This document shows, piece by piece, positions 9,583 to 9,940 of a DNA stretch of 64,000 nucleotides (its first letter is position 1; the number at the start of each line of letters is the position of its first letter). Source of the stretch: Escherichia coli (lineage in GTDB: Bacteria > Pseudomonadota > Gammaproteobacteria > Enterobacterales > Enterobacteriaceae); the NCBI RefSeq assembly GCF_009931435.1, contig NZ_CP043414.1. One strand, written 5' to 3'. Both the position numbers and the translations under genes were made by a program. The notes under the pieces were generated by a model. It saw nothing but the letters and a program-made list of their open reading frames with translations. It was not told the DNA's origin and ran no database searches.

Positions 9583-9637
9583 AGAAAAGCCCCGAGTGAT
9601 ATTTTACCATCAACCCGAGGCCCCCTATATGCAGAAC
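9583..9637 (-). ncRNA. sokC: Sok-type antisense RNA of the hokC/mokC type I toxin-antitoxin locus (position inferred)
   Basis: Placed by the known architecture of hok/sok loci (antisense RNA overlapping the mok start); not independently verified from sequence. Confidence 0.35.
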
Positions 9638-9838
9638 ACATGTAGAGTGCCTCTTACTGACCGTAAGGTCAAGGAGAAGAGAGCAATGAAGCAGCATAAG
9701 GCGATGATTGTCGCCCTGATCGTCATCTGTATCACCGCCGTAGTGGCGGCGCTGGTAACGAGAAAAGACCTCTGTGAGGTTCACATCCGAACTGGCCAGA
9801 CGGAGGTTGCTGTTTTCACGGCTTACGAATCCGAGTAA
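9629..9838 (+). CDS. mokC: regulatory overlapping reading frame of hokC
   Basis: 69-codon frame MQNTCRVPLTDRKVKEKRAMKQHK... fully overlapping hokC, as in hok/mok loci. Confidence 0.6.
   Translation: MQNTCRVPLTDRKVKEKRAMKQHKAMIVALIVICITAVVAALVTRKDLCEVHIRTGQTEVAVFTAYESE
9686..9838 (+). CDS. hokC: Hok-family type I toxin (small membrane peptide)
   Basis: 50-aa translation MKQHKAMIVALIVICITAVVAALVTRKDLCEVHIRTGQTEVAVFTAYESE matches HokC/Gef. Confidence 0.9.
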   Translation: MKQHKAMIVALIVICITAVVAALVTRKDLCEVHIRTGQTEVAVFTAYESE

Positions 9839-9904
9839 GAGCAACGGCGGGGAGTGATCCCCGCCACTTTACAGGTGCTCGCATATCTTCAACGCACCCT
9901 ATTT

Positions 9905-9935
9905 TTACCTGGCCTGCCCACGGGCAGGCTTTTGG
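9905..9935 (-). terminator. dnaJ terminator hairpin
   Basis: gcctgcccacgggcaggc stem-loop immediately downstream of the dnaJ stop. Confidence 0.5.
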
Positions 9936-9940
9936 GGAGG

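Follow-up and report, generated by a model that had tools for sequence, protein, structure and literature searches.

An IS186-free hokC/mokC/sokC locus next to dnaJ in Escherichia coli and its predicted R1-like control elements

In Escherichia coli K-12, the IS186 insertion beside hokC cuts the toxin gene off from the fbi element and from the terminator, and this separation is the ground given in the published accounts cited below for calling the K-12 allele deregulated. In the window (the whole 64-kb stretch of DNA that was analysed), hokC stands next to dnaJ with no insertion between them, which raises the questions of what such a locus retains of hok-type control, how unusual it is, and where in its RNA the control elements lie. 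The locus is very probably the chromosomal type I toxin-antitoxin system hokC/mokC/sokC (gef/sof) in an uninterrupted, ancestral-type form, with control like that of plasmid R1; this reading is carried by the observed gene integrity, by the empty insertion site, by helices that are conserved and covary, and by the frequency of the uninterrupted state. An intact hokC next to dnaJ is a well-described locus in the commonest E. coli configuration and as such is already known. The useful correction is one of anatomy: the hairpin behind the gene is predicted to be the 3' stem-loop of the processed mRNA and also serves IS186 as a target; fbi follows 22 nt downstream of it.

Reading frames and genomic surroundings

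The window represents the E. coli chromosome around dnaK-dnaJ, reversed relative to K-12 numbering (Table 1). As the earlier note on this DNA held, the hokC and mokC frames are intact, and its estimate of about 100 bp between the hokC stop and dnaJ agrees with the 102 bp found between the end of the hokC stop (9838) and the first base of the dnaJ stop codon (9941). The HokC peptide matches Pfam PF01848 (HOK_GEF) with 85.5 bits against a cutoff of 22, its coding DNA shows no difference from that of K-12 MG1655, and its residues M1, C15, C30 and Y47 are unchanged throughout the alignment of Hok homologs. The mokC product carries a single residue change relative to K-12, L2Q (codon 2, Leu in K-12 to Gln), and the GAGG of the mok Shine-Dalgarno (SD) sequence is kept in all aligned homologs; by homology with R1, translation of hokC would be coupled to this overlapping frame, which has its own SD.

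Compared with the K-12 MG1655 genes (b4412, b0018 and b4413), the locus occupies the same site by dnaJ, and the sokC region and leader are the same save for three substitutions across 9480-9865, which fall in the promoter region, between the mok SD and ATG, and in mokC codon 2. K-12 differs in carrying IS186A (1,345 bp) within the post-stop stem-loop and in having nhaA directly upstream of hokC, whereas the window carries an insert of ~3.6 kb between hokC and nhaA. The Rfam family RF01794 (sok/hok leader) matches 9536-9688 on the hok strand with 116.9 bits (E = 8e-28), stopping at the hokC AUG, and a match of this strength is far beyond chance. The interval of the earlier note started at 9583 and so leaves out ~50 nt at the 5' end of the hokC mRNA, with tac and the leader hairpin (9536-9582), as well as the promoter. 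Two other Rfam candidates were rejected: rpsL_pseudo on the minus strand (9806-9930; 19.7 bits where the gathering score is 70) and a trypanosomatid mitochondrial rRNA fragment both fall below threshold and are chance matches to the two GC hairpins and to AT-rich DNA.

RefSeq/PGAP annotation names the 153-nt hokC CDS "mokC: type I toxin-antitoxin system toxin MokC" (L002 6287-6439) and leaves the 69-aa mokC frame and sokC unannotated in most genomes, a quirk of naming.

The insert between hokC and nhaA (window ~5426-9500) is absent in K-12 and holds a Tsx/OmpK-like gene, a sulfatase gene and a third ORF. Relative to an intact 253-aa homolog in NZ_CP033635, from which it diverges by about 10% at the DNA level, the Tsx/OmpK-like gene has codon 6 changed from CGA to TGA, and a 197-aa GTG-started ORF is left. 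Upstream of hokC, the stretch 9100-9500 is AT-rich. The other Rfam matches above gathering score are expected for the region, i.e., tpke11 in the dnaK-dnaJ gap, the leader of the thr operon, naRNA4 in two copies and a tandem of three tRNA genes (coordinates given as 11072-11149, 24927-25046, 51554-51731 and 59531-59849).

Table 1. Features of the hokC/mokC/sokC locus and its surroundings (window coordinates)
Feature	Position	Strand	Remarks
hokC toxin gene	9686-9838	+	50 aa; SD AGGAG 9672-9676; Pfam PF01848, K-12 identity
mokC	9629-9838	+	69 aa; in frame with hokC, common stop; length as K-12 b0018
mokC Shine-Dalgarno GAGG	9617-9620	+	8 nt before mokC ATG; read from sequence
hokC/mokC promoter -10 TATAAT	9524-9529	+	read from sequence; -35 weak
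Predicted full-length hokC/mokC mRNA	9536-9935	+	about 400 nt; putative ends
tac (translational activator) element GGGUGCUUGAGG	9536-9547	+	mRNA 5' end; nearly invariant among homologs
Leader hairpin	9548-9582	+	in both predicted folds
ucb (upstream complementary box, anti-SD) AAGCCCC	9587-9593	+	from fold; agrees with R1 model (PMC9841398)
dcb	9639-9653	+	downstream complementary box; pairs with mok SD region in truncated fold
TadA A-to-I editing motif TACG at Tyr47	9824-9827	+	from TACGAA conservation; PMC5630033
Post-stop stem-loop GGCGGGGA/UCCCCGCC	9846-9865	+	starts 8 nt past hokC stop; holds IS186 target GGGGAGTGATCCCC
fbi (fold-back inhibitory) element CUUCAACGCACCC	9887-9899	+	complementary to tac; MFE fold
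Terminator-like hairpin GGCCUGCC/GGCAGGCU + UUUU	9911-9934	+	hairpin 9911-9930; after fbi
sokC antisense RNA	9579-9637	-	59 nt; coordinates carried over from K-12 b4413
sokC promoter (putative)	9644-9672	-	-35 TTGACC (9672-9667), 17-nt spacer, -10 CACTCT (9649-9644)
dnaJ	9941-11071	-	convergent with hokC
dnaK	11160-13076		
Tsx/OmpK-like outer-membrane channel gene	8313-9074	-	premature stop 9057-9059
Sulfatase	6799-8292		Pfam Sulfatase, 201 bits
Third insert ORF	5426-6676		counterpart in related genome annotated IS1/IS1595 N-terminal zinc-binding domain protein

Predicted folds of the hokC mRNA and of SokC

The RF01794 model starts at 9536, the predicted 5' end of the mRNA, and homology to plasmid hok loci spans 9522-9900, stopping at the end of fbi. 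When folded at full length (9536-9936; MFE -169.7 kcal/mol, z = -6.6), the RNA pairs tac (9536-9547) with fbi (9887-9899) over 12 pairs, and the ucb region (9589-9600) pairs with 9609-9621, which contains the mok SD. When the RNA is truncated (9536-9868), its MFE fold pairs tac (9536-9543) with ucb (9587-9593), and the SD region (9617-9631) with dcb (9639-9653). On thermodynamic grounds, tac/ucb and SD/dcb are thus the pairings predicted to form once the 3' end is lost. For the hok mRNA of plasmid R1, the published model as presented in PMC9841398 runs from a closed full-length mRNA through slow 3' trimming to an open truncated mRNA that is translatable and Sok-sensitive; the two folds predicted for the window reproduce this model.

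When 14 diverse hok loci are compared, 94.6% of the cells of the tac/fbi helix are paired, and the U-A pair 9539/9896 is replaced by C-G in the R1-like plasmid locus L005 and in L007; just one tac/fbi pair shows such a compensatory change because tac is so conserved. The leader hairpin reaches 98.4% paired cells in the 14 homologs and shows compensatory change in three of its nine pairs. Sliding the 3' partner by 1-3 columns lowers the pairing of tac/fbi plus leader hairpin from 96.2% to 38-50%. One aligned locus, L006 (plasmid pELE1-215), has a frameshifted hok ORF and was used for RNA elements only. The hok/mok/sok (parB) locus of R1 has the same order of elements as the window (tac, ucb, mok SD, dcb, Sok target, stem-loop, fbi, terminator), the R1-like L005 aligns with the window element by element, and the predicted full-length and truncated folds switch alike. 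The two loci differ in that the proteins share only about 38% identity, that mokC of the window is in frame with hokC, that the window locus is chromosomal and single copy, and that plasmid stabilisation is inapplicable to it.

The window also encodes a putative cis-antisense Sok RNA that overlaps the mok start and has a tail and a single stem-loop. SokC folds with -23.1 kcal/mol (z = -3.9) into a 9-nt free 5' tail (GUUCUGCAU), one long stem-loop and a U-run; the first three codons of mokC, start codon included, are complementary to this tail. The putative sokC promoter has the same sequence as in K-12 and puts +1 at 9637, the annotated K-12 sokC start. Its -10 hexamer, CACTCT, matches the consensus less well than the TAATCT or TAACCT of prophage paralogs. 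Relative to the paralogs of prophages and plasmids, hokC has lost 1 nt in this -10 region, which converts TAATCT/TAACCT into CACTCT, and K-12 shares this sequence.

On the opposite strand, a TAnAAT hexamer lies at an equal distance upstream of tac in plasmid and prophage homologs, as does the -10 of the hokC/mokC promoter here. The terminator-like hairpin after fbi (-17.9 kcal/mol on the plus strand) is probably the hokC terminator, facing the convergent dnaJ; prophage paralogs have canonical terminators at the same place after fbi. A consensus promoter and terminator scan of 9300-10100 called none of the hokC promoter, the sokC promoter and the 3' terminator, which is explained by the weak hokC -35, by the CACTCT of the sokC -10, and by the four U residues of the terminator where five are needed. 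The sites that the scan did report, one promoter-like on the minus strand (9554-9525) and two weakly terminator-like, match no conserved element and were set aside.

Judged from the homology to hok/sok of plasmid R1, these elements would most likely act in sequence. The weak promoter (-10 at 9524-9529) would yield an mRNA of about 400 nt, from 9536 to about 9935, in which pairing of tac (9536-9547) with fbi (9887-9899) would lock the mokC ribosome-binding site onto ucb, so that the full-length mRNA would be neither translated nor bound by SokC. Slow 3' exonucleolytic trimming would strip fbi and halt at the stem-loop 9846-9865, leaving an mRNA of about 330 nt in which tac would re-pair with ucb and the mok SD would open. 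The unstable 59-nt SokC (9637 to 9579, minus strand) would then cover the mokC start, block translation of mokC and of the coupled hokC, and trigger decay; upon depletion of SokC, HokC would be produced and the inner membrane damaged.

The post-stop stem-loop and the IS186 site

The earlier note placed a GC-rich hairpin at about 9845-9866, and this structure is real: it occupies 9846-9865 (at most 1 nt off), folds with -18.5 kcal/mol (z = -3.95), and is conserved with compensatory changes. In an alignment of 33 non-identical hok loci from plasmids and prophages, its cells are 98.5% paired, with compensatory change in four of eight pairs; 0 of 500 shuffles match the observed value, and sliding the 3' partner by 1-3 columns leaves 55-70% of cells paired. 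In both position and structure, the stem-loop is homologous to the one that ends the truncated hok mRNA of plasmid R1 (PMC9841398), and on this ground it is predicted to form the 3' end of the processed, translatable hokC mRNA of about 330 nt. For R1, PMC9841398 describes a loss of toxicity when mutations weaken this last stem-loop, an effect ascribed there to exonuclease access. Among the closest known systems is the IS-free hokC of E. coli ECOR24 (Pedersen and Gerdes 1999, Mol Microbiol 32:1090; via PMC3562002 and bioRxiv 10.1101/2025.08.07.668861), described as the same locus without IS186. Its reported transcript of about 330 nt, as cited in those two sources, matches the length of the predicted processed mRNA, 9536-9866.

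Two other roles could be given to this hairpin. The earlier note called it consistent with a fold-back element of hok mRNAs, which would make it fbi itself, and its location in the 3' UTR and its strong, conserved structure fit such a role. The hairpin is, however, self-complementary and lacks complementarity to the mRNA 5' end, whereas the 5' tac pairs with 9887-9899 in the MFE fold, in a pairing conserved with compensation in homologs, and the R1 equivalent, as PMC9841398 depicts it, is the last stem-loop left once fbi is removed. The fold-back identity is therefore scarcely credible, and the hairpin is better described as a separate local stem-loop. It is also very improbable that the hairpin is the intrinsic terminator of hokC and that the DNA past it is part of dnaJ. 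Its GC-rich stem, starting 8 nt after the stop codon, would suit a terminator, but the sequence directly 3' of it is ACUUUACAGG, and no U-run follows the stem-loop in the window or in the 33 homologs, which argues against intrinsic termination at this point. Moreover, homology extends to 9900 in plasmid and prophage hok loci that do not lie beside dnaJ, and these loci have their own canonical terminator after fbi. The reading of the hairpin as the stem-loop that closes the processed mRNA is thus retained.

The same stem-loop is the point at which K-12 carries its insertion. The target of IS186 is given in PMC5009759 as 5'-GGGG(N6/N7)CCCC-3', in either orientation, with 54 such sites in K-12, and GGGGAGTGATCCCC at 9849-9862 is the sole GGGG(N6)CCCC site in the 64-kb window. 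In K-12, the 1,345-bp IS186A is placed between dnaJ and hokC, where it splits the stem-loop at the equivalent of GGGGAGTGATCCCC; its junctions read ...GGCGGGGATCACTCC-IS186-GGATCACTCCCCGCC..., with a target duplication of GGATCACTCC. On its minus strand, the window reads as a single uninterrupted and unduplicated GGCGGGGATCACTCCCCGCC. Removing one copy of GGATCACTCC from the K-12 flanks rebuilds the window sequence exactly, and the window is therefore the exact empty site of IS186A. Additionally, the IS186 terminal repeat is absent from the whole 64-kb window even when two mismatches are allowed, which, with hokC and dnaJ contiguous, bears out the earlier statement that the IS186 copy beside hokC is missing.

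Insertion into this hairpin has recurred, with L001 1388-2732 and L089 1008-2352 among the positions. IS186 lies at the same point of hokC in the opposite orientation in H73, H74, H85 and H86, and the opposite orientation is likewise seen at the same hairpin position in other hokC alleles, L009 (~762) and L010 (~877). In K-12, the paralog hokE/sokE, at a different chromosomal position, has a stem-loop that is likewise GGGG(N6)CCCC (reconstructed empty site GCGGGGAGTAATCCCCGC), and it differs from the window in that the site is filled by IS186B at the same hairpin position. A plasmid or prophage hok paralog carries IS186 at this hairpin position in both orientations (L004 ~763, L072 ~880). Two annotated K-12 IS186 copies, A and B, lie in hok hairpins.

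Contrary to what the earlier note implied, the uninterrupted state is not a rarity. With "uninterrupted" defined as at least 80% of 9400-10000 present as one contiguous place, hokC and dnaJ are uninterrupted in 3,791 of 5,426 complete E. coli genomes (70%), a figure that probably underestimates the IS-free share in natural isolates because laboratory derivatives of K-12 and B abound in the collection. The region is matched yet interrupted in 1,634 of the 5,426, and the K-12-orientation IS186 junction was found in 681 of them by means of a dnaJ-side probe, chosen as unique in place of hok-side probes. The hok-side junction counts (1,275 and 1,383 genomes) were discarded since together they exceed the 1,634 non-contiguous genomes and are inflated by paralogous hok-IS186 junctions (e.g., H64, H75). 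IS-free hokC is the majority and normal state in E. coli; the IS186-flanked hokC of K-12 is the derived state, and most E. coli have an uninterrupted locus, with all hok-type mRNA control elements.

Control and activity of the uninterrupted locus

In the window, the promoter -10, tac, ucb, the mok SD, dcb, sokC with its promoter and terminator, the post-stop stem-loop, fbi and the terminator hairpin are all unbroken. The suggestion that native post-transcriptional control may be kept in this strain is thus a reasonable reading: every known hok-type control element is present by sequence, and native control is therefore the expected state. Transcription, processing, the action of SokC and toxicity in this strain would be expected by homology.

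Whether such control would amount to an active toxin locus is a separate matter, and the accounts of earlier work differ. According to one secondary account of Pedersen and Gerdes 1999 (via PMC3562002 and bioRxiv 10.1101/2025.08.07.668861), the IS-free hokC of ECOR24 gave neither post-segregational killing nor activation by rifampicin, whereas a conflicting secondary account of the same paper calls the loci of the ECOR strain collection active. The machinery may thus be intact yet insufficient to kill, given that ECOR24 hokC reportedly gave no killing. It is accordingly possible, though we hold it to be doubtful, that the locus is intact in sequence, transcribed and regulated by SokC, yet inert, with neither killing nor DNA stabilisation, in which case the absence of IS186 would be functionally irrelevant. 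Along with the ECOR24 report, this reading draws on a published description in which all hok loci of E. coli except hokB are inactive, and on the tolerance of disruption at the site by about 30% of genomes. It is opposed by the hokC DNA, which is 100% the same as in K-12 though the flanks diverge (96.9% along 12.6 kb when compared with the closest complete genome), by the maintenance of all helices through compensatory change within the family, by the toxicity that the sources report for the HokC peptide when expressed, and by the account of the ECOR-collection loci as active. The preferred reading of the locus as an uninterrupted allele with R1-like control matters little beyond correct annotation; whether chromosomal hokC has any effect would best be asked in a strain of this type and not in K-12.

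An additional layer may lie in the codon for Tyr47. According to PMC5630033, TadA editing at TACG changes this Tyr codon to one for Cys in hokC, hokD and hokE, and the sequence TACGAA (9824-9829) is invariant in 33 of 33 aligned hok homologs. The recurrence of IS186 in the hok stem-loop is observed; the wider proposal that this conserved stem-loop doubles as an IS186 site, repeatedly and independently disarming hok loci by severing the toxin gene from fbi and the terminator, and that unhit strains keep an active hokC under the control of SokC and of TadA editing at Tyr47, is tentative and, as a whole, rather unlikely. In L010, a viral or metagenomic contig with an IS186-bearing hokC, TTACAAATCC replaces TTACGAATCC at ~862-872, a change that amounts to E48K and removes the TACG editing motif.
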